From NCBI GenBank assembly GCA_043776855.1, contig JAYVQV010000074.1:1-37212 (forward strand): a DNA stretch of 37,212 bases, written 5' to 3'. Shown here piece by piece: positions 5,401-36,078 of this stretch. The DNA comes from Limisphaerales bacterium (lineage in GTDB: Bacteria > Verrucomicrobiota > Verrucomicrobiia > Limisphaerales > UBA11358). The stretch's first letter is position 1, and every line of letters starts with the position of its first letter. The notes beneath the pieces were generated by a model. It searched no databases. It worked only from the letters and a program-made list of their open reading frames with translations, and was not told where the DNA came from. Both the position numbers and the translations under genes were made by a program.

Positions 5401-5416
5401 GATTTCAAAAACGAGT

Positions 5417-8172
<2,756 letters not shown>

Positions 8173-8270
8173 TTTCTTTTTTCCCGTTTCCGGCCTCCTG
8201 CATGAGCCGCGCATCCGGCACGACCTCGCTTGGGTCGAGCTGCTCTGGTAGTATGACGCGCCGAAATAGA

Positions 8271-10788: not shown

Positions 10789-13371
10789 ATGAAACAAATT
10801 TCACTGGTTACCGCGTTAAGCGTGCTGTTCGCCGCGCAATTCAGCTCGTTGCTGGCGCAAGTGCCGCGCCACCTTCCCAACGAGTTGGACGCCGAAGCGG
10901 TTTTGAACGGCGCGTATCCGTGGCCCACGTCGCCGAAAGTTGAGGTCAACTACGACACCAACGGTTTTGCCTTCGACCGACTGACCCTGGTTCCGCCCCC
11001 CGGCGTGCATCCGCGCATTTTAATCAGCCCGAGGGAATTGCCGGATTTACGCCGTCGCGTCGCGGACACGGAAATGGGTCGCGCGCTTCTGAAAAATTTG
11101 CGGTCCCGCGTGAACGATGCCATCAAGCAGCCCGGCGCGTGGGGAGCGACATTTTACGATGCGCTCGCCGCCGGGAATTTGGCGGATGCAAAAAAACTGC
11201 TCGCGGAAAAAAACGGCAAGCCGCCTCAGATCGGGCATTACCAGCCGTTCATCGAGGCGTTTGCGATGGAAGCGCTGGATGCCTTGATTTCAAAAGACGA
11301 ACAGCGTGGCCGAAAAGTTGGCGCGGCCCTCGCAAGTTATGCCGCGATTGCCGAGCCGGCGATTGACAGCGCGCTCGCCCAGCCGCTCGGTGACGATGTT
11401 TGGCGCGTGAAATTGAACGGCCCGACCACTGGCGACTGGAGCAGCGATCAGGGCGCGCGTGACCTTGTCGGTTACCACATTCTTGGCTACGCCTACGACT
11501 TTGCCTACAACTTCATGACCGAGGCGCAGCGTTCCCAAGTGCGCAGCGTCATCTCCAAAGTGACGCGCGGCGAACTGTGGATGGGCGCGCGGCTGCCGCA
11601 TCATTTTCGCAACTGGAACTGGTGCGCCGTCGGCTTGAGCCAGCCGCTGCTCGCGCTGGCAATTGAAGGCGAAGACGGCTACGACCCGCGCGTTTTCAAA
11701 ATGGGCGTGGACATCGCGCGCGATTATTTCAGCTTCGGCATTTCGGAAAATGGTTTTTCCACCGAGGCCGTCGGCTACACGCAGTTCGGTTTAGTCTGGG
11801 CAAATCCCTTCGTGGTCGCCGCCGCGCGGCGCGGGGAAAATCTACTCACGCAAAACCATCTTCGCGCGATGATTGAGTGGTATTTGCATTCAATGGAACC
11901 AGCGGCGCTCGCGCTCGGCCAGGTTTCGACGAACGCGGATTTTGAGCAGCTTCAGCGCAGCCTGCCGCAGTTTTGGACGAGTCACGGCGATGGCGGCGAC
12001 GAAGGCCCGGCCATCTGGACGATGGCGCTGTGGAAATATTTTTATCCGCACGACGCGAAAATTGACCTGCTTTGGCGCGTGGTGGTGAACAAGAATCGTG
12101 GCCAGCCTTTCACGGGCAGTTTTCATTTGATCGAGCCTTTGCTGTGGGCTGATGAAGCGCCCATCACGCTGAAACCGGACGCGGCGGAGAAATTGAACCT
12201 GCCGCGCGCACTCTTTGATGCCACGCGCAGTTCGTTCATCGCACACAGCGGCTGGAACACCAATTCGGCAATGTTGCAGTTCGAGTGCCGCACGGATTCA
12301 GTCGGCTCTAGCCACGAACACGCGGATCGCGGCGCGTTCACGTTTTCCGCGCTGGGACGGCAGTGGGCGAGGGATAATTTCCGTTCCGTCGAGACGCGTC
12401 ATCATAATTCCATTTTGATTGACGGCAGGGGACAAGGTTTTTGGCCGGGGCCGGGCAAATGGCTTGGGCTGGATGACAAAGGCTGGGCGCTCGTTGCCGC
12501 CTGCGACGCAAAAGATTGTTACGATTGGTGGTGGCCCAAGGAAATTATAGCGGAAGACCCGAAAAATTTTGAGCGTTTCAAATTTTCGCGCTGGCAAAGC
12601 AATTTGGCCGACGCCGAGCAGTTTCAAATTGATTACGCCAGTCAGACGCCGGAGCAAGACCCGCGCCCGTCAGTCGTCGCGCATTGGAAAGGATTTACCG
12701 CGCACGATCCGCGCCTGTGGGACGAGGATGCCTGGCCCGTGCGTTTGACGAACAATCCAGTGCAGCGCGCCTTTCGCACGATTGCCTTCGTGCGCGAGCC
12801 GCATCCGTATTTGCTGGTCGTGGATGACATCCAGAAGGATTCGCAAGCACGGCTTTACGAATGGCTGATGCAAATGGGCATGAACACTGCCGTCGCGCGC
12901 ATGGCTGGTGGCGAAATCATTTTGTGCGACGCCACCGTGCCGCTGGACGAAAACGGCTTGCCTAAACTGCGCAAGGGCGACCGCGAATTGCTCGTGCGCG
13001 TGCTCGACTGCGGTGTGCCGGCCAATGCGCACGATTTTCAATCCAAGCCGTCATTTCGATTGGAAACGTTCGAGCGCAAAGACACCCTCGTGCCGGAAGC
13101 GCCCAGCACGGCGCTGTCCGGTTCGCGCACGTTTGGATTGGACAAACGACTGGTGATTGCGAGCCGGGCGGTTGCGCCGAATTTTAAAATCATTTTGTGG
13201 CCGATGCGCGAGGGTGAACCTTTGCCGGATACGATTTGGAACGAGTCGAAAACGGAACTGACCGTGATGGGGCAGGGCGCGACGGATAAAATATTGTTCC
13301 GCACTGAAAACGGTGGCCGCACACACGTTGCGTTGGAACGAACCGGTAAAGCAAAAGCGACCATTCCCTGA
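10789..13371 (+). CDS. Heparinase II/III-like polysaccharide lyase family protein (paralog 1), secreted
   Basis: 860 aa. Signal-like start MKQISLVTALSVLFAAQFSSLLAQ. Supporting motifs are GVHPRILISPRELPDLRRR and SSHEHADRGAFTFSALGRQWARD...HHNSILIDGRGQ (the Hepar_II_III hallmark). The C-terminal block is NPVQRAFRTIAFVREPHPYLLVVDDIQKD. Confidence 0.75.
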   Translation: MKQISLVTALSVLFAAQFSSLLAQVPRHLPNELDAEAVLNGAYPWPTSPKVEVNYDTNGFAFDRLTLVPPPGVHPRILISPRELPDLRRRVADTEMGRALLKNLRSRVNDAIKQPGAWGATFYDALAAGNLADAKKLLAEKNGKPPQIGHYQPFIEAFAMEALDALISKDEQRGRKVGAALASYAAIAEPAIDSALAQPLGDDVWRVKLNGPTTGDWSSDQGARDLVGYHILGYAYDFAYNFMTEAQRSQVRSVISKVTRGELWMGARLPHHFRNWNWCAVGLSQPLLALAIEGEDGYDPRVFKMGVDIARDYFSFGISENGFSTEAVGYTQFGLVWANPFVVAAARRGENLLTQNHLRAMIEWYLHSMEPAALALGQVSTNADFEQLQRSLPQFWTSHGDGGDEGPAIWTMALWKYFYPHDAKIDLLWRVVVNKNRGQPFTGSFHLIEPLLWADEAPITLKPDAAEKLNLPRALFDATRSSFIAHSGWNTNSAMLQFECRTDSVGSSHEHADRGAFTFSALGRQWARDNFRSVETRHHNSILIDGRGQGFWPGPGKWLGLDDKGWALVAACDAKDCYDWWWPKEIIAEDPKNFERFKFSRWQSNLADAEQFQIDYASQTPEQDPRPSVVAHWKGFTAHDPRLWDEDAWPVRLTNNPVQRAFRTIAFVREPHPYLLVVDDIQKDSQARLYEWLMQMGMNTAVARMAGGEIILCDATVPLDENGLPKLRKGDRELLVRVLDCGVPANAHDFQSKPSFRLETFERKDTLVPEAPSTALSGSRTFGLDKRLVIASRAVAPNFKIILWPMREGEPLPDTIWNESKTELTVMGQGATDKILFRTENGGRTHVALERTGKAKATIP

Positions 13372-13372
13372 C

Positions 13373-13413
13373 TGACGCAAATCCGTCCCGCACCGATGCA
13401 ACATAGCCCCTAG
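13373..13413 (+). promoter_or_regulatory. Conserved direct-repeat box. Candidate operator upstream of the pseudopilin-led gene chain.
   Basis: Reads tgaCGCAAatccgtcccgcaccgaTGCAAcatagcccctag. The cores start at 13376 and 13397, 21 nt apart. The box begins 2 nt after the stop codon of the preceding gene. Confidence 0.5.
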
Positions 13414-13491
13414 TTACAAAACCATTTTGTAGCCAGCTTATTTCAACCACCTGCCACTCGCTCTAAAAGCCGTGTCTCTTGGTCTAAAAAA

Positions 13492-14292
13492 ATGAAAACC
13501 CTTTCCGCGCCAACTAAAAAGCCGTTCGCCGCCTTTACGTTGATTGAACTGCTGGTGGTCATCGCCATCATCGCCATTCTCGCCGCCATGCTGCTGCCGG
13601 CGCTTTCCCGCGCGAAGCAGACCGCACTGCGCACCCGCTGCCTGAACAACGTCCGCCAGGCCGGTCTGGCGACTACGATGTATGCCATGGATGCCCGGGA
13701 CGCTTTGCCCTACGGTTATGTGCTGGCGGGTGAAGCGTCGCAGAATGCCAATCCCTCCACGGGTAATTGCTGGACAAATTTTACCAGTTCGCTCGGCTTA
13801 AAAGACCAGGCCTCCATCCAAAAATTTTACTCGTGTCCCGCCGCCTCGTCGCAACTTTCGCAGGGAAACAACCCGCGAACTTACGCCGCCAACGCCAACA
13901 TCAACTGGTATGATACTGCGGCGGGAACTTATGCCTTTACCAAAATCACCACGCCCAGAAAGCCGGTCATCACCATGCTCGTTGTGGACGCTGGTGCCGC
14001 CAACAATGGAACGACCTTGCCCATCACGAGCTATCGCACCATGGCCGAGGGCATGAACTACGCGCCGCTCTTCGCGCACTTCGGCCAGACGTTTCAGAAA
14101 ATGGTTTCCAATCCGGGCAATAATTATTTCAACTACGCGAACGGCTCGGCGGTGTTTGCCTTTTTCGACGGCCATGCGGACGTCCGCAAACCGGATCTCA
14201 CCATGGGCAAAACCGATTCCGCCCCGGTGCTGCCGTCGCAAACGCCCGGTCTCGCGACCGATTTCTACAAGCAATTCTGGAACGGCCAATGA
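13492..14292 (+). CDS. Pseudopilin-like protein with a prepilin-type N-terminal cleavage/methylation domain
   Basis: The start [43 protein letters not shown] is the class III signal / N-methylation motif. A C-terminal FFDGHADV motif is typical of the expanded Verrucomicrobia/Planctomycetes pseudopilin-like family. Confidence 0.8.
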
Positions 14293-15233
14293 AATCATTT
14301 ACGCGCCAGTTTTTCTCCAGCCTCACGCTCGCCGCCGCGCTGCCGTTCGGGACATTCCTCCATTCCCCTGCGCCAAACGAACTGATTTACAAGCACGCTG
14401 CACACGGCGATTTGAAATTGTTTTGCTTTGCACCGGCCACAAATTTCGTGGCGAAAAAATCCCCGGCAATTCTCTGGATTCACGGCGGTGGCTGGACGGG
14501 CGGAACCTGTGAATCTTTTTTTCCGCTCGCGCGCTACACCGCCACGCGCGGGGCGGTGAGTTTCGTCGTGGAATACCGGCTGGCAAAAACCAACGGCACG
14601 GTGACCGTGGCGGCTTGCGTCGCGGACTGCAAATCGGCGGTGCGTTATCTTCGCAGTCATTCAGATGAACTGGGCATTGATCCAAACCGCATCGCCGTCA
14701 TCGGCGAATCGGCGGGCGGCCATCTTGCTGGGTGCGTCGGCACGCTCAATGGTTTCAACGATCCGGCGGACGACTTGAAAATCAGCGCGCGGCCTGACGC
14801 GCTCGTGCTTTACAATCCGCTCACGGATTTTACGCAGTCGAGTTTTCTAAAACTGTTCATGAACGGCGAGGCGGCGGGTGACAAACTGAAATGGGCGCGC
14901 GAACTTTCACCGCTGTTTACCATTCGCTCCAATTTGCCGCCGACGATCTGCATCCACGGCCTCGCGGACACGGTAGTTTCGCCGGACAACTCGCGGCTGT
15001 TCGCCGAAGCGATGCACAAAGCCGGCAACCGCTGCGATCTTGTGCTGCTGCCAGAGACGCCGCACGCGTTTCTGATTCCAAATTACAAATGCTCCGAGGC
15101 GACCGTTGTGAACGCGCTGCTCATCGCGGACAAATTCCTGACCACGCTCGGCTGGTTTTCCGGCGAACCAAACTTGGTCGTTTCCGAGCCGCCGTCGTGG
15201 ACACCCAAATGGCCGTTATCAAAATCCAAATGA
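14289..15233 (+). CDS. Secreted alpha/beta-hydrolase esterase (Abhydrolase_3 / hormone-sensitive-lipase-like; likely carbohydrate esterase)
   Basis: Oxyanion motif WIHGGGW. Nucleophile elbow GESAGGH. C-terminal His in PETPHAF. Signal-like N-terminus. Its ATG overlaps the preceding stop codon (ATGA at 14289-14292). Confidence 0.75.
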
Positions 15234-18200
15234 AAAAATTTACTCAAATAATTTTGTTGGCGTCAGCCTTTTCAGGAAGCGGTTTGGCGCAAACCAACTG
15301 GTCGCCCGTGCCGCCGCAAAATCAGGGGCTGCCTTACACGCGCAGCGCGCAAAAATTTGCCGGCGAAAAAATCAAAGACGCCGTTGCCGTGTTTGCCGGC
15401 AGCCGCTATGCCTGGGTTCACGGTTTCAAAGTCCGGCTGGACGACGCGAACTGGCGCGACGAGGCGGTGCTGCGTGACGGAAAATTATTTGTGCCCGCCG
15501 CGTTTGCTGGTGTTTTGGATTTGGCGGAAATCAAACCATCGCCTGCGCCAAGCTATCTGGCTGACCGTTGGGTTTATTCGTTGGAAATTCCAAAATCAAA
15601 AGCTGCGACGATTCAAATTGACGGCAAAGACTACATCGCGCTGGCGGACGAGGCGCAGAAACACGGCTTCAAAGTCTTCCAAAACGAGCGCGGCCTGCTG
15701 CTCATCGGCAAAATGGAAATTTTGTTTTCTGAATCCGAATCCAATTTACTCGACAGCGTGATCGCGCTTTTCGACACGCCGGAAAAATTCGCCGATCCCG
15801 ACATCGCGACGCGCTGGATTCCGGCGTTGACGCGGCAGGGCGCTTGGACGAATCACGTCAAGGTCACGCCGGAGCAATTGAACATTTACAGCGGCCCAGA
15901 AACGAAATGGCCAACCGCGCCGAAGTCGGCCTACGATTTCTCCGGCTTCAACCAAAAGCTCCTCGGCTCGAAAGTCCCGCCGCCGGGTGTTTATCCACGC
16001 GTGTTATTCAGCCCAGAGGACGTGCCGATGCTCGCGGCGCGGGTAAAAAAATCCAAGCTCGGCCAGAAGTCGCTCATCGAGATGCAGTATTTATTCGGGC
16101 AGAGTTTTTGGAACCCGAACACGAGTGACGGCAAAGTTTTTGAGAAACTCGCCAGCAACGATCTGGCCGGACTCGATTGGCCGGACGACGTGCGGCCCGA
16201 ACGGGTCGCCACGTTCAACACCGCGCAGCAGTTCAAGGGCGAGAAGCCGGGCATTTATAATTCCCACGTCGCGTATCTGCCGGAATGCCTGAATGACATC
16301 GCGTTGTATTGTTTGTTGACCGGCGATGATCTTCACGGCCAGCAAGTCGCCACCGCGATTGCCAATTATTACAAACTGCGCGAGCCGTTGATTGACGCGT
16401 GGAACGCGATGAGCGATTCCGAATTCGGCGACGAGCAAAACAACGCCAACGGCTCGGTGACCGGCTGGCGCGGAATGCACGGCCTCGTCGCGCACATGAA
16501 TCTCGGCCTCGCGCTCGACTTCGGCGGCAAATGGATGACCGCCGAGCAAAAGGAAACCATGCGCCGCGTCATTGCCAAGGCGACTTACGGCCGCCGCGCT
16601 TACGGCGAGGACAGCACGGTGCGTTTCCGCGACGTGAACTGGGTGGGTTGGGATTTGCCGCAATTTCTCGCGCTGACGGCCATCGAGGGACTCGAAGGTT
16701 TTGACCGCGAAGCCTGGGAACAAGGGCGCGACACGGTGCGCGCGTTCTGCGATTTCGGCATTGACGATGCCGGCGTGGTGTTCGAGAGCAACGGCAAAAC
16801 GCCCGGCAGTTTACAATTCATCACGCTCTCGCTGGTGGCCTCGGCGCGGCGCGGCGAAAATTATTTCGGCCATCCGCACCTGCGCAAATTGCTGGAAGCG
16901 CAAACGCAAATGACTTCGCCCAACGGCCGCGTGACGGTGAACTGCGGGACGCAATACGAACCCTTCAGCCGGCAGTTTGTATCACCACAGTTGACGGATG
17001 AATTGAAATCGTTTTTCCCGCGCGAGCGCATCGCGGATTATTTGCTGACGAAGATCACCGCTTCGCCGGCACAGGCGGCGAACGAATACACACGCGGCTG
17101 GGCGATCCAAAATTTCGACGCGGCGAAATATCGCGAGCAGGTGAAAAAAAATCAGCGCCTGCGTCTGCCCAGTCCGACTTATCCCGGCTTTGTGCCCGGC
17201 GTGCTTTACGATTCAGATTTTGCGTCGGCGACGCGCGCAGATTTGAATTTGCCGCTGGATTTTAATGCGCCGGTTCACGGCGTCTTCTCCAGTTACAGCG
17301 ACCGCACGACGAATGCCGCGTGGATGAATATCATGGTTCGTCCCGACCATTATCTCGGCGCGGGGCATCACCACGCGGACGCGGGGATGTTCCATTTTTC
17401 CGCGCGCGGCGTGGACTGGTTCACCGAGTCGCCGTTCACGCAGACTTACGACGGCAAATTTCACAATCTCGTTTTGGTGGACGGCGAATCCGAGGCGACG
17501 ACGCTGCCGGACGACAAAATTCTCGGCTGGAATGCAGCGGCGAATTATCTCGGCGCGGTGGAAAATAAATTTGCCGCGAGCGCGGCCGCGGATTTGACCT
17601 CCGCCTATTCGTGGCGGTGGCTGTGCCAGTCGCCGCCGACGTGGAGCGAACATCTCGTTAGCCTCGGCTGGGAAATTGAGCCGTCGCCGCGCGTGCTGGA
17701 AATTTTTGCGGGCACGGCGCGCTACAAAATGCGCCCGTGGTGGGCGAACTACGACTACGCGAATTTTATGCCGACCTGCCGCGCGCCGTTCAACCCGATG
17801 CAACGCGTCTTCCGCACCGTCGGCCTCGTGCGCGGCCAGCATCCTTACGGATTCATCGTGGATGACTTGAAAAAAGATGACGCGCCACACTTGTATCAAT
17901 GGGCGGCGATGCTGAACGGCGGCGTGTGGCCAGCGGAAGTTTCCGGTCTCGCAAAAAATCAAATCGCACTGGCGTTCCGCGCCGGCGATCCCGATGTCAA
18001 TTCTCCCGTCGCCAAAGCGTCAATCAAACCGCAGGCCGGCGAACCGTTGCTCATAGTGACCGCACTCGGCATGGACGAAAGCGGCGATCCGGCAACGCCA
18101 CTGTTTGAAGTCGCGCGGCTCGAAGGACCGAAAGACCACAACGGCAAACCGCAATTTTACGAGCGGCTGGTCATCAACCGTCACGCGGACGCGGCGAATT

Positions 18201-18382
18201 TCCGCGTGCTGCTGCTGCCAGTTCGCGCTGGAGAAAAATTCCCAGAGGTTTCGTTTGCCGATGGAAATACTGCGATAAATTGGAGCGGGCAGCGGGATGA
18301 AATCAAATTCAGTTCCGACGCCAGCCAGCGCACGCGCCTCGTCGTGAAGCGCGGCGACAAAGAAATTCTGGTTTCAAAATGA
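15230..18382 (+). CDS. Heparinase II/III-like polysaccharide lyase family protein (paralog 2), secreted
   Basis: The track ORF 14891..18382 is trimmed to the ATG at 15230, which forms an ATGA overlap with the esterase stop. This gives [21 protein letters not shown]. Supporting motifs are GVYPRVLFSPEDVPMLAARV, GAGHHHADAGMFHFSARGVDWFTE...FHNLVLVDGESE and NPMQRVFRTVGLVRGQHPYGFIVDDLKKD. Confidence 0.75.
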   Translation: MKKFTQIILLASAFSGSGLAQTNWSPVPPQNQGLPYTRSAQKFAGEKIKDAVAVFAGSRYAWVHGFKVRLDDANWRDEAVLRDGKLFVPAAFAGVLDLAEIKPSPAPSYLADRWVYSLEIPKSKAATIQIDGKDYIALADEAQKHGFKVFQNERGLLLIGKMEILFSESESNLLDSVIALFDTPEKFADPDIATRWIPALTRQGAWTNHVKVTPEQLNIYSGPETKWPTAPKSAYDFSGFNQKLLGSKVPPPGVYPRVLFSPEDVPMLAARVKKSKLGQKSLIEMQYLFGQSFWNPNTSDGKVFEKLASNDLAGLDWPDDVRPERVATFNTAQQFKGEKPGIYNSHVAYLPECLNDIALYCLLTGDDLHGQQVATAIANYYKLREPLIDAWNAMSDSEFGDEQNNANGSVTGWRGMHGLVAHMNLGLALDFGGKWMTAEQKETMRRVIAKATYGRRAYGEDSTVRFRDVNWVGWDLPQFLALTAIEGLEGFDREAWEQGRDTVRAFCDFGIDDAGVVFESNGKTPGSLQFITLSLVASARRGENYFGHPHLRKLLEAQTQMTSPNGRVTVNCGTQYEPFSRQFVSPQLTDELKSFFPRERIADYLLTKITASPAQAANEYTRGWAIQNFDAAKYREQVKKNQRLRLPSPTYPGFVPGVLYDSDFASATRADLNLPLDFNAPVHGVFSSYSDRTTNAAWMNIMVRPDHYLGAGHHHADAGMFHFSARGVDWFTESPFTQTYDGKFHNLVLVDGESEATTLPDDKILGWNAAANYLGAVENKFAASAAADLTSAYSWRWLCQSPPTWSEHLVSLGWEIEPSPRVLEIFAGTARYKMRPWWANYDYANFMPTCRAPFNPMQRVFRTVGLVRGQHPYGFIVDDLKKDDAPHLYQWAAMLNGGVWPAEVSGLAKNQIALAFRAGDPDVNSPVAKASIKPQAGEPLLIVTALGMDESGDPATPLFEVARLEGPKDHNGKPQFYERLVINRHADAANFRVLLLPVRAGEKFPEVSFADGNTAINWSGQRDEIKFSSDASQRTRLVVKRGDKEILVSK

Positions 18383-19275
18383 GTGTTGCCGAACCAATGG
18401 TTGAGATGCGTCAGCGCGGAAAGTCGTCCGCGCTGCGGCTGGGCGTGCGCGCGCATGACTTCGGTTGCGCGGCGGCGGCTGATTTGTCGGCACGCATCGC
18501 GGCGCAGGGATTTTCCTGCGTGCAACTGGCGTTGAACAAAGCCATCGCGGGGTTGAATTTGTCGGCGGGCGATTTGCACGCGGAATTGGCGCGCGAAATC
18601 GGCGGCGCGTTTGCGCGGCACGGCGTCGGCATCGAAGTGCTGGGCTGCTACATCAATCCGATTCAACCAGATTTGGCGGCGAGGAAAAAACTGCTGGAAT
18701 TTTTCAAGGACCACTTGCGTTTCGCCCGTGATTTCGGCTGCGGCATCGTGGCGCTGGAAAGCGGTTCGGTGAATGCGGATTACTCGCCGCATCCGGCCAA
18801 TCATGGCGAGGCGGCGTTCAACGAAATGCTGGCGAGCATTGCGGAACTGGCGGCCGAGGCGGAAAAATTTGGCGTAGTCATCGGCTTCGAGGCGGTGCAT
18901 TGCCACACGGTTTCCACAGCGCAGAAAATGCGGCGCGTGCTGGACACGATTCGCTCGAAACACCTGCGCGTAGTTTTTGACGCGGCGAATCTGCTGGCGC
19001 CGGAAAATTTTCGCGAGCAGTCGCGCATCATTCCGGAAGCGCTGGATTTGCTCGGCGAGGACATCGCGGTGATTCACGCGAAGGATTTTGCTTTTGAAAA
19101 CGGCGCCGTGAAAACCGTTCCCGCCGGTTGCGGCGAGTTGAATTTCGCACCGGTGCTGGATTTTGTCCGCGCGCAAAATTCCGGCAGCGCGGTTTTGCTG
19201 GAGGAAGCCGGCGAAAGCGCCGCGCCGGATTGCGCCAAATTTTTACACCGTCAATTTTTACAGGAAGCACCATGA
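18379..19275 (+). CDS. Sugar phosphate isomerase/epimerase (xylose-isomerase-like TIM barrel), cytoplasmic
   Basis: 298 aa. ATGA overlap at 18379-18382. The overall pattern (LGVRAHDFG..., GIEVLGCYINP..., VVIGFEAVH..., VVFDAANL..., VIHAKD) fits the AP_endonuc_2/xylose isomerase-like fold. This is a family-level call only. Confidence 0.6.
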   Translation: MSVAEPMVEMRQRGKSSALRLGVRAHDFGCAAAADLSARIAAQGFSCVQLALNKAIAGLNLSAGDLHAELAREIGGAFARHGVGIEVLGCYINPIQPDLAARKKLLEFFKDHLRFARDFGCGIVALESGSVNADYSPHPANHGEAAFNEMLASIAELAAEAEKFGVVIGFEAVHCHTVSTAQKMRRVLDTIRSKHLRVVFDAANLLAPENFREQSRIIPEALDLLGEDIAVIHAKDFAFENGAVKTVPAGCGELNFAPVLDFVRAQNSGSAVLLEEAGESAAPDCAKFLHRQFLQEAP

Positions 19276-21080
19276 AGCCACCGTTACAAGCCGCCCGTCT
19301 CATCGGCGACAAACTCATCCGCGACACGCCCTTTGCCTACCGGCTGGAGGTCGCGCCGAACAACCGTGCGTTTGACCGGATGCACTTCGTGGATTTTGGG
19401 GGCACGTTCGGTCAGGGCAAACCGGCGGTGGCATTTGCGTGGACGCGGTTGACGGCGGCGAAGGCGGGCAAAATCAAAATCCAGATCGAACACAGCGACG
19501 GCTGCCAAATCTGGTTGAACGGAAAAAATGTTTATGTGCGCGCGGGCAAACGGAAATTGAATCTGCGGCGCGACGAGCGGAGCTTTGAAATGTCGCACGC
19601 GTTCACGGTGGATTTGAAAGCGGGCGCGAACACGCTGCTCCTCAAATCCGAGACGCGCGGCGGCGAGTGGCGCGTGTATCTCCAGCCGCCAAACGCGAAA
19701 GGCGCGGTGGTGAACGGCGCGTCGCATCCGGAAATCGGTTTGCGCGGCGTGCCGAATGTGGATGATAAAGTCGCCGAGCTGACGAACTGGCTGGTCATCG
19801 GGCCGTTCGCGGGCGGACGCGGCGCGCTGGAAAAAATTCTGCCGCTGGAAAAAGAATTCGCTTTTGGGAAAATGTATTCCGGCTTGGACGCGCCGGTGAC
19901 ATGGACGATTCCGAAAATTGAAATCCTCGGCAACCTGATTGACCCGCTGCCGTGGGGCACGAACTACCACTGGAATTATCACAACGGCGGCACGGCGTGG
20001 GCGATGCAGTTGCTGGCGGCGGCGACCGGCGAAAAAAAATACGCGGACTACGCGAACCGGTTTTGTGATTTTCATCTCGAAGGCATTCCGTTTGTCGAGC
20101 ATCAGGTAAAAACTTTGAACGCGGTCGAGTCGGCGAATCACTGGATCATTGAGACACCGTTGCTGGATTTCACGCTCGCGCCGTCGCTGCCGTTTATTCA
20201 ACGGCTGCGCACGGAGAAAAAATTTCCGAAGCGAGCGGCTTACGAAAAATGGATCGCGCGGATGCTGCACTACGCGCGGCACGAACAGATTCGCCTGCCG
20301 GGCAGCGGCATCTTCACACGCACGACGCCGGTAAATTTTACGACGTGGGTGGACGATATGTTCATGGGCATCCCGTTTCTCGTGCAGGCGGCGTTGCTGG
20401 CGAAAGATAAAAAATCACACACCGAATTTCTGAATGACGCGGCGAGCCAGACACTCGCGTTCAACGAACAGGTCTGGGATGCGGACGCGCAGCTTTATAT
20501 GCACGCGCGTTATTCTGGGAATCCCGTGAAACTCCCACACTGGGCGCGCTGCAATGGCTGGGCGATTTGGGCGATGAGTTGCGTGCTGCAACATCTACCG
20601 GCGACGCACCCGAAACGCGCGGCGATTTTGAAACATTTCCAGACGCACGCGGAATCGTTGCGGAAATTACAGGCGAACGACGGCTTCTGGTTCAACGTGC
20701 TGGATCGCAAAGATTCGGCAAAGGAAGTTTCCGGCACGGCAATTTTTGTTATGGCCTTTGCGCGCGGCATCCAACAGGGCTGGCTGGCGCGGGAAAATTT
20801 TTTGGAAGCCGTGCGCCTTGGCTGGTCGGCATTGGATTCGCGCATGGAGGCCGACGGCACAGTGCACGACATTTGCGCGGGGACAATGTGCACGGAAGAC
20901 GAGGAGTATTACGTCACGCGGCCGTTTTACGATAACGACACGCATGGGTTGTTTGCGGCGCTGTTCGCGGCGCTGGAAGTCAGCCGCCTGGGAATGGCGA
21001 CGGAGTTGGACGAACGCAGTGTGAAATCTACTGCGCCGGACGCACCGCACAAAACTTCGCTGGCTTTTCCGCCGGCTTGA
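19272..21080 (+). CDS. GH105/GH88-type unsaturated rhamnogalacturonyl/glucuronyl hydrolase with an extra ~230-aa N-terminal beta-sandwich-like region and no signal peptide
   Basis: The track ORF 19128..21080 is trimmed to the ATG at 19272 (ATGA overlap at 19272-19275). WVDDMFMGIPFLVQAALL and WARCNGWAIWAM are Glyco_hydro_88-family hallmarks. The N-terminal part (GCQIWLNGKNVYV...LKAGANTLLLKSE) looks like a sugar-binding beta-sandwich. Confidence 0.75.
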   Translation: MKPPLQAARLIGDKLIRDTPFAYRLEVAPNNRAFDRMHFVDFGGTFGQGKPAVAFAWTRLTAAKAGKIKIQIEHSDGCQIWLNGKNVYVRAGKRKLNLRRDERSFEMSHAFTVDLKAGANTLLLKSETRGGEWRVYLQPPNAKGAVVNGASHPEIGLRGVPNVDDKVAELTNWLVIGPFAGGRGALEKILPLEKEFAFGKMYSGLDAPVTWTIPKIEILGNLIDPLPWGTNYHWNYHNGGTAWAMQLLAAATGEKKYADYANRFCDFHLEGIPFVEHQVKTLNAVESANHWIIETPLLDFTLAPSLPFIQRLRTEKKFPKRAAYEKWIARMLHYARHEQIRLPGSGIFTRTTPVNFTTWVDDMFMGIPFLVQAALLAKDKKSHTEFLNDAASQTLAFNEQVWDADAQLYMHARYSGNPVKLPHWARCNGWAIWAMSCVLQHLPATHPKRAAILKHFQTHAESLRKLQANDGFWFNVLDRKDSAKEVSGTAIFVMAFARGIQQGWLARENFLEAVRLGWSALDSRMEADGTVHDICAGTMCTEDEEYYVTRPFYDNDTHGLFAALFAALEVSRLGMATELDERSVKSTAPDAPHKTSLAFPPA

Positions 21081-21095
21081 AGCAATTTAAGCGTT

Positions 21096-22277
21096 GTGAA
21101 ACCCAAGCAAAAACGCATCGCGCTGATTGGCCTGCCGGTTTTCCAGTCCATCAACAACCTGGCTTGTGTGGCCATCGCGCGGCACGCGGAGGAAACGGGG
21201 CGCTGGCGGTTTGTGTTTTCGGCGGAGGCGTCGGTGGCGGCGTTCAAGTTTCTGCGCACGCTGGATTGCGACGGCGCGATTGTCCGCATCACGTCGGAGG
21301 CGATGAAGCGTGAGGCAAAGAAAATAAAATTTCCCATCGTCAATGTCTCCTCCTGGCTCGCGGAACCGGGCGTGCCGTCGGTGCGGCATGATTACCGGGC
21401 GCTGGGGCGGATGGGCGCGGAGCATCTGCTGGAAAAAGGTTTTCGCCGCATCGGCTGCGTGATTGTGCCGGGCGGATATTTTATTCAGGAACGGTTCACC
21501 GCCTTCCAGGAAACGCTAAAGGCACATGGGTTGAAGCCGCAATTATTTCACCTGCGGACGACGCAGCCCACCCTGCCCCAGCCCATCGCCGCCGAGGAGC
21601 GGCGGCGTTTCGGCGACTGGCTGCGGACGTTGCAGAAGCCGGCCGCCGTGGCGTTGATGGACGACTGGGACGCGCCGACCCTGATGGCGGTGTGCCGCGA
21701 GGTCGGTTTGGAAATTCCACGCGACCTCGTGATGATCACGACCTGCAATCACAGCGAAGTATTGCCGCAATGCCCGATCCCATTGAGCGCGGCGCTGGAA
21801 AATCACGAACTGCTTGGTCGTCTCGCCGTGGCGTGCCTCGACGATTTGATGTCCGGCAAACGTCTGGAAAATTTCACCGTCACCGTGCCGCCGCTCGGAG
21901 TGGCGGCACGCGCTTCGACCGCGACGATGGCTATTGAAGATCGCGAGGTGGCGCACGCGGTGGAGTTCATCCGCGCGCACGGCTTCGAGCCGATTAACAT
22001 TTCGGATGTGTTGACGTGCGTAAATATTTCCCGCGTGACGCTGGAGCGCCGCTTCCGGCAGGTCATCGGCGACACGCCGCACGAATACCTCATCAAGCAC
22101 CGCATCCGCCGCGCGCAGGAGTTGCTGTTACAGGATCCGCCTCCTAGTTTGCAGGCCATCGCGAAGCAGTCTGGACTGCCGGATCGGCGCCGCTTGAACC
22201 AGGTCTTTCGCCGCGCGACGGGCAAAGCTCCGTCCGTCTGGCGCGAATGGGCGCTGAAGCAGCGTGTGAAACTTTGA
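21096..22277 (+). CDS. XylR-type hybrid transcriptional regulator: a LacI/periplasmic-binding-protein-like sensor domain plus a C-terminal AraC-family HTH
   Basis: GTG start at 21096, 15 nt after the GH105 stop. The N-terminus KRIALIGLPVFQ...GRWRF..., then RIGCVIVPGG, fits a sugar-binding fold. The C-terminus ISDVLTCVNISRVTLERRFRQVIGDTPHEYLIKHRIRRAQELLL...LQAIAKQSGLPDRRRLNQVFRRATGKAPSVWR is a double AraC HTH. Confidence 0.8.
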   Translation: MKPKQKRIALIGLPVFQSINNLACVAIARHAEETGRWRFVFSAEASVAAFKFLRTLDCDGAIVRITSEAMKREAKKIKFPIVNVSSWLAEPGVPSVRHDYRALGRMGAEHLLEKGFRRIGCVIVPGGYFIQERFTAFQETLKAHGLKPQLFHLRTTQPTLPQPIAAEERRRFGDWLRTLQKPAAVALMDDWDAPTLMAVCREVGLEIPRDLVMITTCNHSEVLPQCPIPLSAALENHELLGRLAVACLDDLMSGKRLENFTVTVPPLGVAARASTATMAIEDREVAHAVEFIRAHGFEPINISDVLTCVNISRVTLERRFRQVIGDTPHEYLIKHRIRRAQELLLQDPPPSLQAIAKQSGLPDRRRLNQVFRRATGKAPSVWREWALKQRVKL

Positions 22278-22315
22278 CGCAATTCAGTATGCCGTTGCCG
22301 CAACTTCACCCCTCG
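22275..22315 (+). promoter_or_regulatory. Conserved direct-repeat box. Candidate operator upstream of the LamG-lyase gene.
   Basis: Reads tgaCGCAAttcagtatgccgttgcCGCAActtcacccctcg. The cores start at 22278 and 22299, 21 nt apart. The leading TGA is the regulator's own stop codon. Confidence 0.5.
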
Positions 22316-22358
22316 TGAATTTTCGTTTTAATGTGAGTTTAAGGTTATCCTAAAAATT

Positions 22359-25300
22359 ATGCGCCGATTGACGACTTTAATTTTGTTTCTGGCCGCCGCT
22401 GTAAAAGTTTTTACCGCGCCGGCGATTCTATTTCAGATGAATCAAACGCCCGTGACCGGCAACAACGCCATCACGAACGCGGCGACCACGAACAGCGCTT
22501 ACTGGGGCACGCTGAAAGGTTCCGGCGCGCTGCCCGTGCTCACGAACGGCGCGAGCGCGAACACCGGCAGCGCGTGGCAGTTCAACGCTGGCTACTACCT
22601 TGGCGTCGGGCCGGACGCGGTGACACGCAGTCTGGGCGACATCACGAACACCACTGGCTTGAGCGTGGCGTTCTGGGTGAAATACACGAACAGCGCCACG
22701 TTCGTCCGCGTCTGCGGCTTGGGCGGCAGTGGCGAGACGTTTGATTTTTCCACGCAAAGCGGCGGCAAGATGATGTTCGCCGCCGGCTATCAGCCGACCG
22801 GCACGCGCTGGGTGAGCCTGACGCCGAACAATGTCGTGTTCGACGGCCAGTGGCATCATGTCGTGGGCGCGGTGGATTTTCGGCGGACTGTGAACAACGC
22901 GGTAGTGTTTGTGGACGGCGTGCCGGTGTTGACCAGTTCGGCGACAATTTTCAACTCCATCACTAATTCCGGCACGTTGAACATTGGTGCGCGCGGCAGT
23001 GGCAGTGCGACGGCGTGCGCGATTGACCAGTTCATCGTTTACACGAACGCCCTGCAGGCCGCCGAAGTCGCGCAGCTTTTTGCGCTGGGCAACGTGACGA
23101 ATTACGCGCCGATCATTTCGGTGAGCGCCGCGCAAACTTCACTGGCCTGGACGAACGGCGCGGCGAACATTTCAACCAGTTTGGCAGCGCTCATCAGCGA
23201 CGACGGCCTGCCGAATCCGCCGGGACGCGTGACGAACCTGTGGACGCAGACGAGTGGGCCGACGAATTCCTTTGCGACGTTCGTCTCGCCGACCAACGTC
23301 ACGACGACGGTGACGTTCACCAACACCGGCCTCTACATTCTGCGCTGCACGACGCGGGATGGCGTCTTGAGCAATTGGGATGAGGCGACCATCAACGTTT
23401 TTTCCAACGCCGCACCGGTGGTTGCTGCTTGGGCATCAGTGACAACTTTGCTTTCAACAAATCCGGCGACGATTTCGCTCGCGGGCTGGGCCCAGGACGA
23501 CGGCATGCCGAATCCGCCCGCGCTGACCACGAGCCTGTGGACGCGCGTGAGCAGTCCCGGCAACGTCGCGGTGACATTCGCAAATCCGGCGAGCGTCAAC
23601 ACCAGCGTCACCATCCCGACCAACACCGGCACTTACGTCCTGCGGCTCACGGCGAGCGACAGCCTGTTGAGCGGCTCGGCAGATGTGACGATCAACGTGG
23701 TGACCAATCTCGCGCCGGTTTTAAGCGCATGGACAACCGCCCCCATCGCGCAATGGCCGTCGAATCAATTCACGTTGCAGGCGATGGTGGCTGACGATGG
23801 CCGTCCGAATCCACCCGGCGTGGTGACGAGTTTGTGGAGCAAGGTGAGCGGGTCGGGCGCGGTGACGTTCGGCAATGCAGCAGCGTTGAACACGACTGCT
23901 ACTTGCACGTTGCCGGGTGTTTATCAATTTCGGCTCGTGGCTTCGGACAGTGCTTTGTTCGCGACGAATGACGTCTGGGTGAACATTTGGTCAAACAGTC
24001 CCGGCTGCCTGCCGCCGCCTTCCGTGCGGACGCTCTCCGCCACGCCGCCGCCGTATGTGCATCCCAGAATTTTCTTCACGGACGCGGATCGCCCGGCGAT
24101 GCAGGTGCGCGCGACGAACGACACGATTGTGCAGGAGGGAATTTATCAGGCGACCTATGGTTTGTTTGCCGTGGTCTCGAACACGATTGACAACGCCGCC
24201 AGCACGGTCGGCCAGACGTTCGCGCGGCTTGCAGCCGGCGACACGACGGTGGATACGATGGCGCTGGTGCAGCAGCAATCCACCGGCGAATTTTTGAATG
24301 GCGACGTTGGCTCCGGACTTTACGGGCCGATGGCTTCGGCGTGTTACCTCGCATGGCTCTGGCCGACGAACACCGCGCGCTTGCAGCAGCTCGCCACGGC
24401 GGTCGCCACGGCGGCGACCTGCCATCAGAGCTGGTATGTGAATCTTCCCGACAGCAGCAAGGGCGAGCTGTCGCCGGACGTTTATGCGGACATCGGTTTT
24501 TGCTACGACCTCATGTATAACTGGATGTCGGCGTCACAGCGCGCGACGACGCGGAATTTTATTTCATTGATGACGACCAACCGCCACACGATTGGCTGGA
24601 ATGAAACGGATTATTCTGACTCGACCAACTGGCGCGACTTCCACGATCACCTCATCCTTGCGCAGCTTGCCATCGAGGGCGAAACGGGCTTCGACGCCGT
24701 GGCACTGGCGACGAATGCCGCGTCGCTGAAAACCTTCACGACGCGCTGGGGAATCACCGAGGGCGGTTTCAACCGCGAGGGCATGGGCTATTTCGCGATG
24801 GGCATGAGGAACGGCATCCTCGCCGCCACGGCGCTTTCGCGGCGCGGCGAAAATCTGCTCGTCACCACGCGCCTCTTCAATTCGCAGCAAGAAGCCTTCT
24901 ACGAACTCGCGCCGTGGGGCTATTACATCTACGACCATCAGGACGGCGGCGGCTGGGGCAACGGCGGCGGCGGTGGCATCGCCTACTACTATATGATGAA
25001 ATACCTCTTTGCGGACGACCCGATGGCAGACTGGATTTTTCAGAACAACCGCATCTATACGTCCAACAGCAGCCAGCCGCTGATCAAGGCCATCTTCGGT
25101 GCCGGCCCGCTGACGAACAACCCAAGCTTCGCCGTGGCCGGCCCGGCGAAAAATTTGTCGCTCGGAAAATTTGATCCGCAGCGTGGCTTCGGCGTGGCGC
25201 GCTCGGACTGGGGAACGAATGCCATGCAACTCGACTTCGATTGCCGCTTCGACACGATGACGCTGGGGCATCTGCATTCCGACCGGAACAATTTCACGCT

Positions 25301-26741
25301 GCTGTCGCATGGCCGCGTTTGGATTGGCGACCCCGGCTACCACCTGACGGAAAACGACGGACATGCCACCGTCTTGATTGACGGGCTTGGCCAGGCGGGA
25401 ACGGCGGGCAGCAATCATTGGCCGAGCTTGCCGGCGCACTTCGTGGAATTTCGTGGTCAGCCGATGGTGTCGCTGTTTTCCGGCGATGCCAAGCCGGCCT
25501 ACGATTATTCGTGGGACTGGGCGAATCTCGGCGGCGGTGCCGGCTACCAACCTTACACCAGTTACGTCGGCACCGGCCTCACAACGCCGTGGCGCTGGCT
25601 GGATTTGATGTATGCGCCGCCCAGTGATTTGACCGGCGCGAACGCGTGGATGACCAATTATGTCCGCGCGAATCCGGCAATGTTTAATCCGGTGCAACGC
25701 GCCTTCCGCACGGCGATGCTGCTGCGCGGCACGAAACCTTATGCGCTGATCGTGGACGACATTCAAAAGGACAACGCCACGCACACCTACGACTGGTCGG
25801 CGAACACCATCGGGCTGGATCCGCTTTCCGGCTTTGATGATCCGAATCCTGACGTGAGTTTTGTGTCCGCGCCGGATGCGACGAATGCCGTTCTCTATCA
25901 CGCCGCCGACACGAACGGCTGGCAGCCGCGCCTGCTCGTGCGCGTGCTGGACGCGAAGGGTGTGGCCGTGCCGGTGCAAATCGTGGATACGATCAACGCG
26001 CTCGGCAACCGCACTAAGCGCCTGGTCGTGTCGCGCAGCAACGTCGCCGCACCGGATTTCAAAATCCTCCTCTTCCCGCATCTTGCGGGCGAGGCATTGC
26101 CGGTGACAACGTGGAGCAACAACGTCGTCACCGTCACGATGGCGGACGGACAGATTGATCGAATTTATTTCAACACGAATGCCGATGGCCGCACGCGGAT
26201 TCAGACTTACCGCGTCGCCGGACAAAGCGCGGTGCCAAACATTCCCAGCCTCACCGCAACGGCGGGCGTGGCGCAAGTTTCGCTGAACTGGAACGCCTCA
26301 ACCGGCGCGACGGGCTACGTTCTCAAAGTTTCCACGAACAGCGGCGCGGTTTACTCCGTCGTCGCCAGCAATCTTTTAGCGACAGGTTTCACCAATGTAA
26401 ATTTGTTGCCCGGCACCAATTACACCTACGCCGTCGCCTCCATCAATACGAACGGCGTCAGCGAAGATTCCGCGCCAGCCAGCGCGGTTCCGCTGGCCGC
26501 CGTAACCACGCCACCAGTCATCTCGAACATTCAAATCATCGGTGGCAATCTCGTCATGACCGGCACGAACGGAACAGCGGGCGGAAACTGTTTTGTGCTG
26601 GCAACGACCAATCTCACGCAGCCCATGGCGAACTGGTCGTTCATCGCCACCAACCAATTCGGCGCGGGCGGCGCGGTGATTTTTACTAATCCGCTCAACC
26701 CCAATTCGCCGCAGACATTTTATCGGCTGCGGCTGCCCTGA
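22359..26741 (+). CDS. 1460-aa secreted multidomain protein: LamG/ConA-like domain, three Ig/PKD-like modules, heparinase II/III-like core (paralog 3), FN3 domain, and a C-terminal FYRL module
   Basis: Signal-like start MRRLTTLILFLAAAVKVFTA. LamG-like motifs are FDGQWHHVVGAVD, LNIGARG and IDQFIVY. Three tandem ~100-aa modules each contain DDG[LMR]PNPP....LW (nt 23103-23996). Lyase-core motifs are YVHPRIFFTDADRPAM, LGHLHSDRNNFTLLSHGRVWIGDPGY...HATVLIDGLGQ and NPVQRAFRTAMLLRGTKPYALIVDDIQKD. The FN3 domain lies at nt 26235-26498 (SLNWNASTGATGYVLKVS...YTYAVASINTNG). The last 80 aa end in QTFYRLRLP. Confidence 0.8.
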   Translation: MRRLTTLILFLAAAVKVFTAPAILFQMNQTPVTGNNAITNAATTNSAYWGTLKGSGALPVLTNGASANTGSAWQFNAGYYLGVGPDAVTRSLGDITNTTGLSVAFWVKYTNSATFVRVCGLGGSGETFDFSTQSGGKMMFAAGYQPTGTRWVSLTPNNVVFDGQWHHVVGAVDFRRTVNNAVVFVDGVPVLTSSATIFNSITNSGTLNIGARGSGSATACAIDQFIVYTNALQAAEVAQLFALGNVTNYAPIISVSAAQTSLAWTNGAANISTSLAALISDDGLPNPPGRVTNLWTQTSGPTNSFATFVSPTNVTTTVTFTNTGLYILRCTTRDGVLSNWDEATINVFSNAAPVVAAWASVTTLLSTNPATISLAGWAQDDGMPNPPALTTSLWTRVSSPGNVAVTFANPASVNTSVTIPTNTGTYVLRLTASDSLLSGSADVTINVVTNLAPVLSAWTTAPIAQWPSNQFTLQAMVADDGRPNPPGVVTSLWSKVSGSGAVTFGNAAALNTTATCTLPGVYQFRLVASDSALFATNDVWVNIWSNSPGCLPPPSVRTLSATPPPYVHPRIFFTDADRPAMQVRATNDTIVQEGIYQATYGLFAVVSNTIDNAASTVGQTFARLAAGDTTVDTMALVQQQSTGEFLNGDVGSGLYGPMASACYLAWLWPTNTARLQQLATAVATAATCHQSWYVNLPDSSKGELSPDVYADIGFCYDLMYNWMSASQRATTRNFISLMTTNRHTIGWNETDYSDSTNWRDFHDHLILAQLAIEGETGFDAVALATNAASLKTFTTRWGITEGGFNREGMGYFAMGMRNGILAATALSRRGENLLVTTRLFNSQQEAFYELAPWGYYIYDHQDGGGWGNGGGGGIAYYYMMKYLFADDPMADWIFQNNRIYTSNSSQPLIKAIFGAGPLTNNPSFAVAGPAKNLSLGKFDPQRGFGVARSDWGTNAMQLDFDCRFDTMTLGHLHSDRNNFTLLSHGRVWIGDPGYHLTENDGHATVLIDGLGQAGTAGSNHWPSLPAHFVEFRGQPMVSLFSGDAKPAYDYSWDWANLGGGAGYQPYTSYVGTGLTTPWRWLDLMYAPPSDLTGANAWMTNYVRANPAMFNPVQRAFRTAMLLRGTKPYALIVDDIQKDNATHTYDWSANTIGLDPLSGFDDPNPDVSFVSAPDATNAVLYHAADTNGWQPRLLVRVLDAKGVAVPVQIVDTINALGNRTKRLVVSRSNVAAPDFKILLFPHLAGEALPVTTWSNNVVTVTMADGQIDRIYFNTNADGRTRIQTYRVAGQSAVPNIPSLTATAGVAQVSLNWNASTGATGYVLKVSTNSGAVYSVVASNLLATGFTNVNLLPGTNYTYAVASINTNGVSEDSAPASAVPLAAVTTPPVISNIQIIGGNLVMTGTNGTAGGNCFVLATTNLTQPMANWSFIATNQFGAGGAVIFTNPLNPNSPQTFYRLRLP

Positions 26742-26746
26742 ACGCG

Positions 26747-26788
26747 TGACGCAAATAGACACGCCGTTGCCGCAAGTTTTGCCCTGTG
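26747..26788 (+). promoter_or_regulatory. Conserved direct-repeat box. Candidate operator upstream of the SASA-type esterase gene.
   Basis: Reads tgaCGCAAatagacacgccgttgcCGCAAgttttgccctgtg. The cores start at 26750 and 26771, 21 nt apart. The 13-nt spacer segment gccgttgccgcaa is identical to the copy at 22291-22303. Confidence 0.5.
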
Positions 26789-26818
26789 CGGGTGGAACTT
26801 TCTGGGCAATCTTTAACG

Positions 26819-35931: not shown

Positions 35932-35966
35932 CCCTCCAAGGTGTCCACCACTACGGGTTAAGACCA
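35932..35966 (-). repeat. IS3-family right terminal inverted repeat
   Basis: The reverse complement is TGGTCTTAACCCGTAGTGGTGGACACCTTGGAGGG. Confidence 0.85.
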
Positions 35967-35992
35967 GTTCCGGAACCACCCCTCACCCTCAA

Positions 35993-36019
35993 TCCCTCTC
36001 CCCTCCAAGGGGAGAGGGA
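35993..36019. repeat. Perfect GC-rich palindromic hairpin: a REP-like element, or a possible terminator of the convergent TPR gene
   Basis: TCCCTCTCCCC-tccaa-GGGGAGAGGGA forms an 11-bp perfect stem. It lies 60 nt downstream of the minus-strand gene that ends at 36079 and 27 nt from the IS right end. No U-tract follows on either strand. Confidence 0.5.
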
Positions 36020-36078
36020 AGCCGCTGCGGACGCTGCTGAAATTATCAACCGCGAATTTCCTACTTGGGAATTTGGAA

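Follow-up and report, generated by a model that had tools for sequence, protein, structure and literature searches.

A large family of heparinase-fold proteins, probably uronate lyases, in a glycan locus of a Limisphaerales bacterium

The DNA analyzed here (the window) is a 37,212-nucleotide stretch, positions 1 to 37,212 of contig JAYVQV010000074.1, from a Limisphaerales bacterium of the Verrucomicrobiota (assembly GCA_043776855.1). It contains three intact open reading frames (ORFs) on the plus strand, 10789-13371 (ORF1; product P0001, 860 aa), 15230-18382 (ORF2; P0002, 1050 aa) and 22359-26741 (ORF3; P0003, 1460 aa), whose products are probably secreted uronate lyases of heparinase fold that belong to one large, unnamed family and act on an acetylated, pectin-like glycan. 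We documented the boundaries of this family, its predicted fold, the conservation of its residues and its gene neighborhood. The fold and the probable chemistry are already known, and it is at the family level that the group is new to the cut-offs of Pfam and NCBIfam and to solved structures (at most 13% identity).

A discrete family of heparinase II/III type

The three ORFs are true, old paralogs whose similarity is far above chance. BLASTP alignments of about 800 aa gave 28% identity between ORF1 and ORF2 (E 3e-73), 26% between ORF1 and ORF3 (E 1e-55) and 24% between ORF2 and ORF3 (E 3e-35), which bears out the original prediction of diverged paralogs from an old duplication. The motifs quoted in that prediction (HxHxD, H[NA]x[IV]L[IV]DG, a C-terminal block and F[KR][IV][IL]L.P..[AE]GE..P) were all found where they had been placed. 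The N-terminus of each ORF is hydrophobic and, as read from the sequence, signal-peptide-like. An HPR motif after the signal peptide had been claimed for all three and was found so in P0001, which consists of a signal peptide and the family core only; in ORF2 and ORF3 the motif is preceded by N-terminal modules of 224 and about 545 aa, respectively, and in ORF2 it reads YPR.

In P0002, the family core (aa 214-1048, nt 15869-18373) follows the signal peptide and a conserved 224-aa N-terminal module (aa 1-224, nt 15230-15901), which has no Pfam match and stands at the front of lyase2-type genes, the type of ORF2, in 16 of the 45 loci of at least 15 kb that were used for neighborhood counts, in several phyla. 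The ORF2 start at 15230 was favored over a longer frame from 14891 because it overlaps the stop codon of the preceding esterase gene and the signal peptide follows directly. P0003 comprises a signal peptide, a LamG domain, three PKD-like modules, the core (aa 555-1286, nt 24021-26216), an fn3 module and a C-terminal tail. A fourth paralog of the same genome is part of an incomplete protein longer than 2546 aa, encoded on the minus strand of contig C224 (2-7639); autotransporter-type PATR repeats stand at both ends of this protein, which further comprises LamG, PKD-like modules and two fn3 modules.

An exhaustive phmmer search of 1.84 billion representatives matched 1012 clusters at a threshold of E ≤ 1e-3, of which 609 remained at E ≤ 1e-10 and 265 at E ≤ 1e-30. 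The group is a discrete family, most of it from Verrucomicrobiota, that counts at least 1000 clusters when grouped at 50% identity, and a word-indexed search found hundreds of P0001 orthologs of more than 50% identity. Among the matches listed, 119 of 120 P0001 orthologs had no precomputed Pfam domain, the remaining one had esterase domains only, and every named ortholog was called 'hypothetical protein'. Cultured carriers of the family are Zobellia galactanivorans, Lentisphaera marina, Asticcacaulis currens and Parasediminibacterium. The copies in Zobellia, Lentisphaera and Asticcacaulis also have mostly hypothetical names; the Z. galactanivorans ortholog, CAZ94334.1, is annotated as 'hypothetical membrane protein', and heparinase-type names were given in one GenBank record (Zobellia russellii) and a few UniRef entries. 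A literature search on Zobellia locus tags near the ortholog, with ZGAL numbers that were guessed and may be wrong, found nothing.

Multiple copies were seen in some of the cultured carriers. L. marina has about ten paralogs in 55 kb (G042:C1:1641149-1695704), where genes for a sulfatase, for AXE1 and BD-FAE esterases and for a pseudopilin-like protein are also found, and Parasediminibacterium sp. JCM 36343 has about 11 family paralogs (contig C3 of genome G043). In Z. russellii (L081 1-22472), the family lies inside a classical polysaccharide utilization locus with a hybrid two-component regulator, SusC and SusD. The same locus encodes two members, one of Tyr-type and one of Lys-type (1689 aa) that is fused to PA14 and LamG, as well as a 668-aa protein, a Kelch protein and a DUF7133 protein (the Tyr and Lys types are described below).

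The distribution of the family is patchy among close relatives, since no member at E ≤ 1e-10 was found in 24 congeneric or 16 same-order genomes. A canonical PF07940 (Hepar_II_III_C) protein was absent from the genome of the window. The family was detected in 3 of 301 Flavobacteriaceae genomes at E ≤ 1e-113, and 16 further genomes gave local matches only (E 1e-15 to 1e-6), with the gap between 1e-113 and 1e-15 empty. Three of these weak matches were examined and are DUF4962/Hepar_II_III_C or HepII proteins. Flavobacteriaceae ORFs of about 870 aa with weak matches were considered for polysaccharide lyase (PL) family 40 but proved to be DUF4962/HepII proteins, and that assignment was rejected.

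Family models recognized the paralogs poorly. P0001 and P0002 had no Pfam match at E ≤ 0.01, and Hepar_II_III_C (gathering cut-off, 24 bits) was missed in ORF1 (12.5 bits) and ORF2 (no match) and was sub-threshold in ORF3 (16.4 bits), with weak matches in 4 of 32 family members (best E 4.9e-5). The motifs earlier described as family hallmarks are thus present, but the likeness to that family was overstated. The NCBIfam model of the PL21 enzyme HepB (NF045571) gave a local match of 22.9 bits, its cut-off being 600, DUF4962 was below threshold (E 0.07), the HepII_C domain (PF18675) had no Pfam match in the ORFs, and the best single-sequence match in the PDB was heparinase II (E 0.08).

Profile and fold comparisons placed the family more clearly. 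An alignment of 32 family sequences (A1) served for profile and hhalign comparisons; against the PDB, its first match was the PL15 oligoalginate lyase Atu3025 (E 1.9e-12), followed by the PL35 glycosaminoglycan lyases (GAGases), dermatan-sulfate epimerase 1 (DS-epi1), PL21 heparinase II, PL39 and PL17. Compared by hhalign with 12 canonical PF07940 proteins from related genomes, A1 aligned over 633 columns (99.6%, E 4e-24). The AlphaFold2 model of P0001 (predicted local distance difference test score, pLDDT, 86.3; predicted template modeling score, pTM, 0.88) has helices at aa 81-468 and strands at aa 474-851, with a helical insertion in the beta-rich C-terminal half. Foldseek matched the model to PL15, PL35, PL39, PL21, DS-epi1, PL17, PL12 and PL33 at E 6e-17 to 6e-10 and then to PL8, with a probability of 1.00 to 39 chains of these PL families. 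The model and its Foldseek matches have the toroid and beta-sandwich of heparinase II/III-type lyases. The family is placed in that superfamily, whose members have an (alpha/alpha)6 toroid and, after it, an antiparallel beta-sandwich.

Identity to solved families was 9-13% throughout and no single family stood out. The proteins were not assignable to PL15: the profile E value was only 1.9e-12, identity was 12-13%, and they lack the conserved His of the His311 column of PL15, which falls beside the Asn277-Trp278 pair of the family. The question of which PL family the paralogs belong to, raised with the original prediction, was well founded, as the Pfam, NCBIfam and structure searches gave no characterized subfamily with a solved structure. 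The proteins probably form a new clade at the level of a PL family.

The C-terminal signature block of P0001, NPxQRxFRT-x8-PYxL[IV]VDDIxKD (aa 656-684, nt 12754-12840), recurs in ORF2 (17792-17878) and ORF3 (25686-25772); Y.W comes after the block, and before it lies an insertion of about 75 aa (P0001 aa 575-650) that is specific to the family and partly helical. Rather than being private to the three paralogs, as first thought, the block is family-wide, with Arg663 conserved in 134, Asp679 in 132 and Asp684 in 133 of the 134 diverse family cores over which conservation was counted. A profile of the C-terminal 220 residues alone (A2) matched no solved lyase in the PDB, so the block is diagnostic of the family at the sequence level. 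Its Arg, [VI]xDD strand and next aromatic residue align (by hhalign only) with a hairpin of canonical Hepar_II_III_C, 'R-x-i ... v-x-DD ... h', that is less conserved. The F[KR][IV][IL]L.P..GE..P motif had no canonical counterpart in the hhalign alignment.

Catalytic positions and the Tyr/Lys alternation

Residue roles in the superfamily were taken from Table 4 of PMC12088678, and the numbering of Atu3025 was checked against its H531A entry (3AFL). In the profile alignment, position 330 of P0001 corresponds to Tyr365 of Atu3025 and Tyr246 of the PL35 enzyme GAGase II, and His509 corresponds to His531 and His401, respectively. Asn277-Trp278 is offset by at most one residue from the Asn192-Trp pair of GAGase II, and His511, Asp513, Asp529 and His539 fall on its Mn ligands His403, Asp405, Asp421 and His457. 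The key residues of P0001 are Asn277-Trp278, Glu326-x3-Tyr330, His509-x-His511-x-Asp513, Asp529 and His539, and the predicted catalytic codons occupy the plus-strand stretch 11617-12315 (Asn277, 11617-11619; Tyr330, 11776-11778; His509, 12313-12315).

Most of these positions are nearly invariant: Asn277 was kept in 129 of the 134 cores, His509 in 131, Arg76 and Glu326 in 133 each and Asp237 in all. Position 278 was Trp in 90 cores and His in 28, and position 330 was Tyr in 62 and Lys in 57. P0001 and P0003 have the Asn, Tyr and HxH His of the superfamily together with a full predicted metal site (Tyr-type). P0002 has Asn-Lys-His with the metal site kept, and the C224 copy has Asn-Lys-His with the metal ligands lost (HSEAD, Gln, Ser; both Lys-type). 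The doubt once attached to the paralogs, that catalytic His and Tyr might be missing, was therefore answered for the His and for the Tyr of ORF1 and ORF3, and it stands for ORF2, where Lys replaces Tyr.

In a maximum-likelihood phylogeny, Tyr and Lys at position 330 alternated in large blocks, with 16 parsimony changes that were mostly in a few degenerate clades, and the four paralogs of the genome were placed in four different clades. Lys330 is a conserved, clade-specific state and not decay. No residue co-varying with Tyr/Lys330 was found family-wide; a coupled change, His74Tyr with Tyr236Leu, is confined to the lyase2 clade, and P0002 has Tyr74 and Leu236. In 70 loci seeded on the Tyr-type pattern, more than one family ORF was present in 32, and 26 of these 32 had both a Tyr-type and a Lys-type member. 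This co-occurrence spans Verrucomicrobiota, Planctomycetota, Armatimonadota, Bacteroidota and Lentisphaerota. The clade-wise alternation, in which both forms are kept next to each other, offers a natural experiment on the superfamily's mechanism and may mark a split between lyases and dehydratases.

The locus and its candidate substrate

On the plus strand, an N-methyl/DUF1559 pseudopilin-like gene (13492-14292) lies between ORF1 and a BD-FAE/Abhydrolase_3 carbohydrate esterase gene (14289-15233), and the latter is conserved directly upstream of lyase2-type genes. ORF2 is followed by a gene for a xylose-isomerase-like TIM-barrel protein (18379-19275), which is conserved directly upstream of the gene for a glycoside hydrolase (GH) family 105-like unsaturated uronyl hydrolase (19128-21080; GH88/105 domain, aa 279-621; true start probably nearer 19272). 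This hydrolase was closest to GH105 enzymes (3k11, 7e-45; YteR, 2e-24), and the TIM-barrel protein might process the released 4-deoxy-hexosulose-uronate. A hybrid periplasmic-binding/AraC-type regulator gene (21096-22277), conserved downstream of GH105, precedes ORF3. A SASA-type carbohydrate acetylesterase gene (26786-28555) comes after ORF3 and is followed on the plus strand by a gene for a 1932-aa repeat protein; the edge of the glycan locus has an IS3-family transposase (35135-36040, plus strand; NF033516, E 2e-72).

On the minus strand are genes for an aldo-keto reductase, a GH139 protein (848-2995; DUF5703_N and a GH95-like catalytic domain), a right-handed beta-helix protein (3004-5490; only an RHGA/epimerase-type N-terminal cap, PF12708, and a generic Beta_helix domain), a GH78 alpha-L-rhamnosidase (5761-8436; closest to RhaB of Bacillus sp. 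GL1, E 1e-52) and P0004 (8271-10538; 755 aa). The GH78 gene as listed, with a TTG start, shares 166 nt with the 3' end of P0004, and its real start is probably further downstream. For P0004, neither Pfam nor the PDB offered a relative; at 65-76% identity it accompanies lyase1-type genes in 10 of the 45 loci, and it is a candidate new glycan-active family.

The Pfam and PDB matches agree with the GH105-type hydrolase, GH78, beta-helix protein and two esterases first seen beside the paralogs. The neighbor then called GH95-like is instead GH139, as it matched two GH139 structures (E 1.9e-133, 9HMB; E 3.6e-94). It keeps a Glu aligned with the catalytic acid Glu561 of BT0984 and a Gln-Asn pair. GH139 is a feature of degraders of rhamnogalacturonan II (RG-II), and a GH139 homolog of a Verrucomicrobium isolate is inactive, has Thr at the catalytic Glu position and is thought to be a binding protein (PMC12282258). 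A literature search on DUF5703 found nothing. A Pfam scan of the main ORFs of the window found no PL1/3/4/9/10/11-type domain, consistent with the reported lack of PL1/PL4/PL9/PL11-type enzymes, and no sulfatase was found in the window. GC content was uniform (0.55-0.61), and the idea of a recent foreign insertion of the island was rejected on composition.

The order lyase1, pseudopilin-like protein, esterase, lyase2, TIM barrel, GH105 and regulator is kept in metagenome-assembled genomes at 72-75% identity. GH105, the TIM barrel, the AraC regulator and BD-FAE were each found within 10 kb in 12 of the 45 loci and SASA in 7. Other ortholog loci contained GH28, GH43, GH95, GH139-like, GH2, GH29, Pel9A-like and other beta-helix proteins, together with GDSL, AXE1 and SASA esterases, GFO/IDH/MocA oxidoreductases and Kelch/NANM-SSF transporters.

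The common denominator of these loci suggests an acetylated, acidic heteroglycan with rhamnose and (methyl-)fucose as the substrate, for which pectin like RG-II or rhamnogalacturonan I is the best fit; sphingan-type or algal exopolysaccharides are also possible. The esterases, GH78 and GH105 fit the acetylated polymer of rhamnose and uronate proposed earlier, and the GH139 neighbor narrows that guess towards RG-II-like pectin. The link to GH139 suggests a way to dismantle RG-II-type pectin outside Bacteroides. If the family is outside current CAZy families, it adds a large, widespread group of at least 1000 clusters in which freshwater and soil Verrucomicrobiota, Planctomycetota and Lentisphaerota are prominent. 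Its members now are called hypothetical, so the glycan-degradation potential of these phyla would be under-counted if our reading is true. The cultured carriers make the idea testable.

Proposed mechanism, alternatives and known systems

The chemistry and the substrate are proposed by homology. From the fold, the homologous catalytic positions and the partnership with GH105, we infer that the Tyr-type proteins catalyze beta-elimination at uronate. Esterases would first deacetylate the glycan. Asn277 with Trp278 would neutralize the uronate carboxylate, His509, positioned or activated by the His511/Asp513/Asp529/His539 metal site, would abstract H5, and Tyr330 would protonate the O4 leaving group. 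The beta-elimination would leave a 4,5-unsaturated uronate for removal by the GH105 of the same operon, and GH78, GH139 and the beta-helix protein would trim rhamnose, 2-O-methyl-fucose and other sugars. In the Lys-type copies (P0002 and C224), Lys may serve as the proton donor in place of Tyr and hence give another specificity or leaving group, and the Tyr-type and Lys-type copies may work as a conserved pair.

Several points weigh against uronate lyase activity across the family. In RG-II, 4-O-substituted galacturonic acid occurs only in the backbone, which leaves few targets for a classical lyase, and the superfamily also includes an epimerase and a dehydratase. GH105 is a neighbor of the family in no more than about a quarter of loci. 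The Y305K and Y305R mutants of a PL40 enzyme are inactive (PMC12915356), so Lys-type members may not be classical lyases.

A tentative alternative has a fair amount in its favor, and we nonetheless think it less probable than lyase activity throughout: the Tyr-type proteins are true lyases and the Lys-type paralogs (ORF2 and C224) are oligosaccharide uronate 4,5-dehydratases, in which the 4-OH of a saturated, non-reducing-end uronate is eliminated as water, enabling removal by GH105. RG-II side chains carry terminal and not 4-linked uronates. The precedent is P29_PDnc (PL37, heparinase-III-like model), which turns glucuronic or iduronic acid linked to 3-sulfated rhamnose (GlcA/IdoA-Rha3S) into an unsaturated disaccharide for GH105 (PMC8511951, PMC6168547) and requires Lys303, not Tyr306 (PMC8511951). 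The loss of PL40 lyase activity in Y305K (PMC12915356) implies that the natural Lys forms probably act differently, Lys330 is strictly conserved inside its clades, and Tyr and Lys types are paired in 26 of the 32 multi-copy loci. However, Lys303 and position 330 are equated by spacing only (Asp248-Lys303, 55; Asn277-330, 53; Asn-Tyr in the superfamily, 53-60), and Lys is catalytic in genuine lyases of other folds.

A broader reading, which we regard as speculative, joins these elements. It proposes a new PL-level family of Tyr-type lyases and Lys-type, non-reducing-end uronate dehydratases, paired or in arrays of up to about ten copies, that would provide with GH105 a 'desaturate-then-hydrolyze' route for stripping differently linked uronic acids from RG-II-like acetylated pectins, replacing the glucuronidases and galacturonidases of Bacteroides.

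It is unlikely that an existing CAZy family already covers these proteins, the likeliest case being a distant branch of PL40 that acts on bonds of the GlcA/IdoA-rhamnose or GlcA-mannose type. PL40 comprises lyases of about 850 aa that act on ulvan, saccorhizan and heparin. The PL40 enzyme Uly1040 (856 aa) has the same two-domain build, an Asn245-Trp246 neutralizer pair in which Trp is sometimes His, as at position 278 here, a Glu301-x3-Tyr305 motif parallel to Glu326-x3-Tyr330, and His485-x-His487 with Mn and an activating Asp (PMC12915356). By motif and spacing, ORF1 and ORF3 share this layout, which is common to other families of the superfamily such as PL35; GAGase II of PL35 likewise has the Asn-Trp pair. 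Identity between PL40 members is itself only about 30%, and an Atlas cluster with ulvan-lyase Pfam families was among the feature neighbors. In contrast, PaUL40 of PL40 is recognized by alginate-lyase and heparinase domain models, whereas the listed orthologs of P0001 lack Pfam domains in all but one case and PF07940 matches weakly in few members. Uly1040 homologs are 92.6% Bacteroidota (PMC12915356), but the present family is mostly from Verrucomicrobiota. PL40 would be expected to be common in Flavobacteriaceae, but the family occurs in only the three genomes given above, with a wide gap in E values below them, and the Z. galactanivorans ortholog is annotated as hypothetical. The lack of a sulfatase in the window also argues against PL40.

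We give very little weight to the proposal that the proteins are polymer-level uronate C5-epimerases, which would share the fold and proton abstraction without elimination, as in DS-epi1. That enzyme (6hzn) was among the best profile and fold matches, but GH105, conserved next to the family, needs an unsaturated uronate, and the catabolic setting of esterases and glycosidases, the secretion signals and the full lyase-type triad and metal site of ORF1 and ORF3 do not fit epimerization. A derivation of non-catalytic glycan-binding or scaffolding proteins from lyases is scarcely credible: the catalytic Tyr is absent from ORF2 and the C224 copy, the latter has also lost the metal ligands and the Verrucomicrobium-isolate GH139 homolog sets a precedent for binding proteins (PMC12282258), but His509, Asn277 and Arg663 are kept almost without exception, Lys330 is clade-conserved and not random, and the triads of ORF1 and ORF3 are complete.

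Among the closest known systems, PL15 (Atu3025, 3A0O; exoHep, 6LJA) gave the best profile (1.9e-12) and fold (6e-17) matches and has in common the toroid and beta-sandwich, the Tyr/His pair (Tyr365/His531 for Tyr330/His509), the N-terminal HPR motif and the HxHxD block. Unlike PL15, the family replaces the second base, His311, with Asn-Trp, has the 75-aa insertion before the signature block, has Lys for Tyr in half of its members, scores below threshold for DUF4962/Hepar_II_III_C and is only 12-13% identical. The PL35 GAGases (8KHV, 8KHW) share the Asn-Trp neutralizer, the Tyr/His pair and the His-x-His-x-Asp...Asp...His Mn site, but they are 12% identical, have about 600 aa without the extended C-terminal half, act on glycosaminoglycans and come from Bacteroidota.

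The proteins of the PF07940 family align with the present family at the HPR, YD, N-[WH], E..G[YK], HxHxD and H..IDG motifs and at the Arg...[VI]xDD hairpin; in the present family, however, the signature block is far more conserved and the model score is under the cut-off. P29_PDnc of Formosa agariphila is alike in its predicted heparinase-III-like fold, its essential Lys, its feeding of GH105 and its work beside GH78 on a glycan of rhamnose and uronate. It differs in that PL37 is reported to be below 60 kDa and in its context of sulfated ulvan, a comparison made by description and spacing only. PL40 (Uly1040, 9VTK; PaUL40; P10_PLnc), compared by description only, has members of about 850-860 aa with Asn-Trp(His), Glu-x3-Tyr, and His-x-His with Mn and an activating Asp, and has GH105 and GH78 as partners in ulvan loci. 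PL40 is marine, mostly from Bacteroidota and seen by the alginate-lyase and heparinase models of Pfam, whereas the present family escapes those models, is mostly from Verrucomicrobiota and is found here in a locus without sulfatases.

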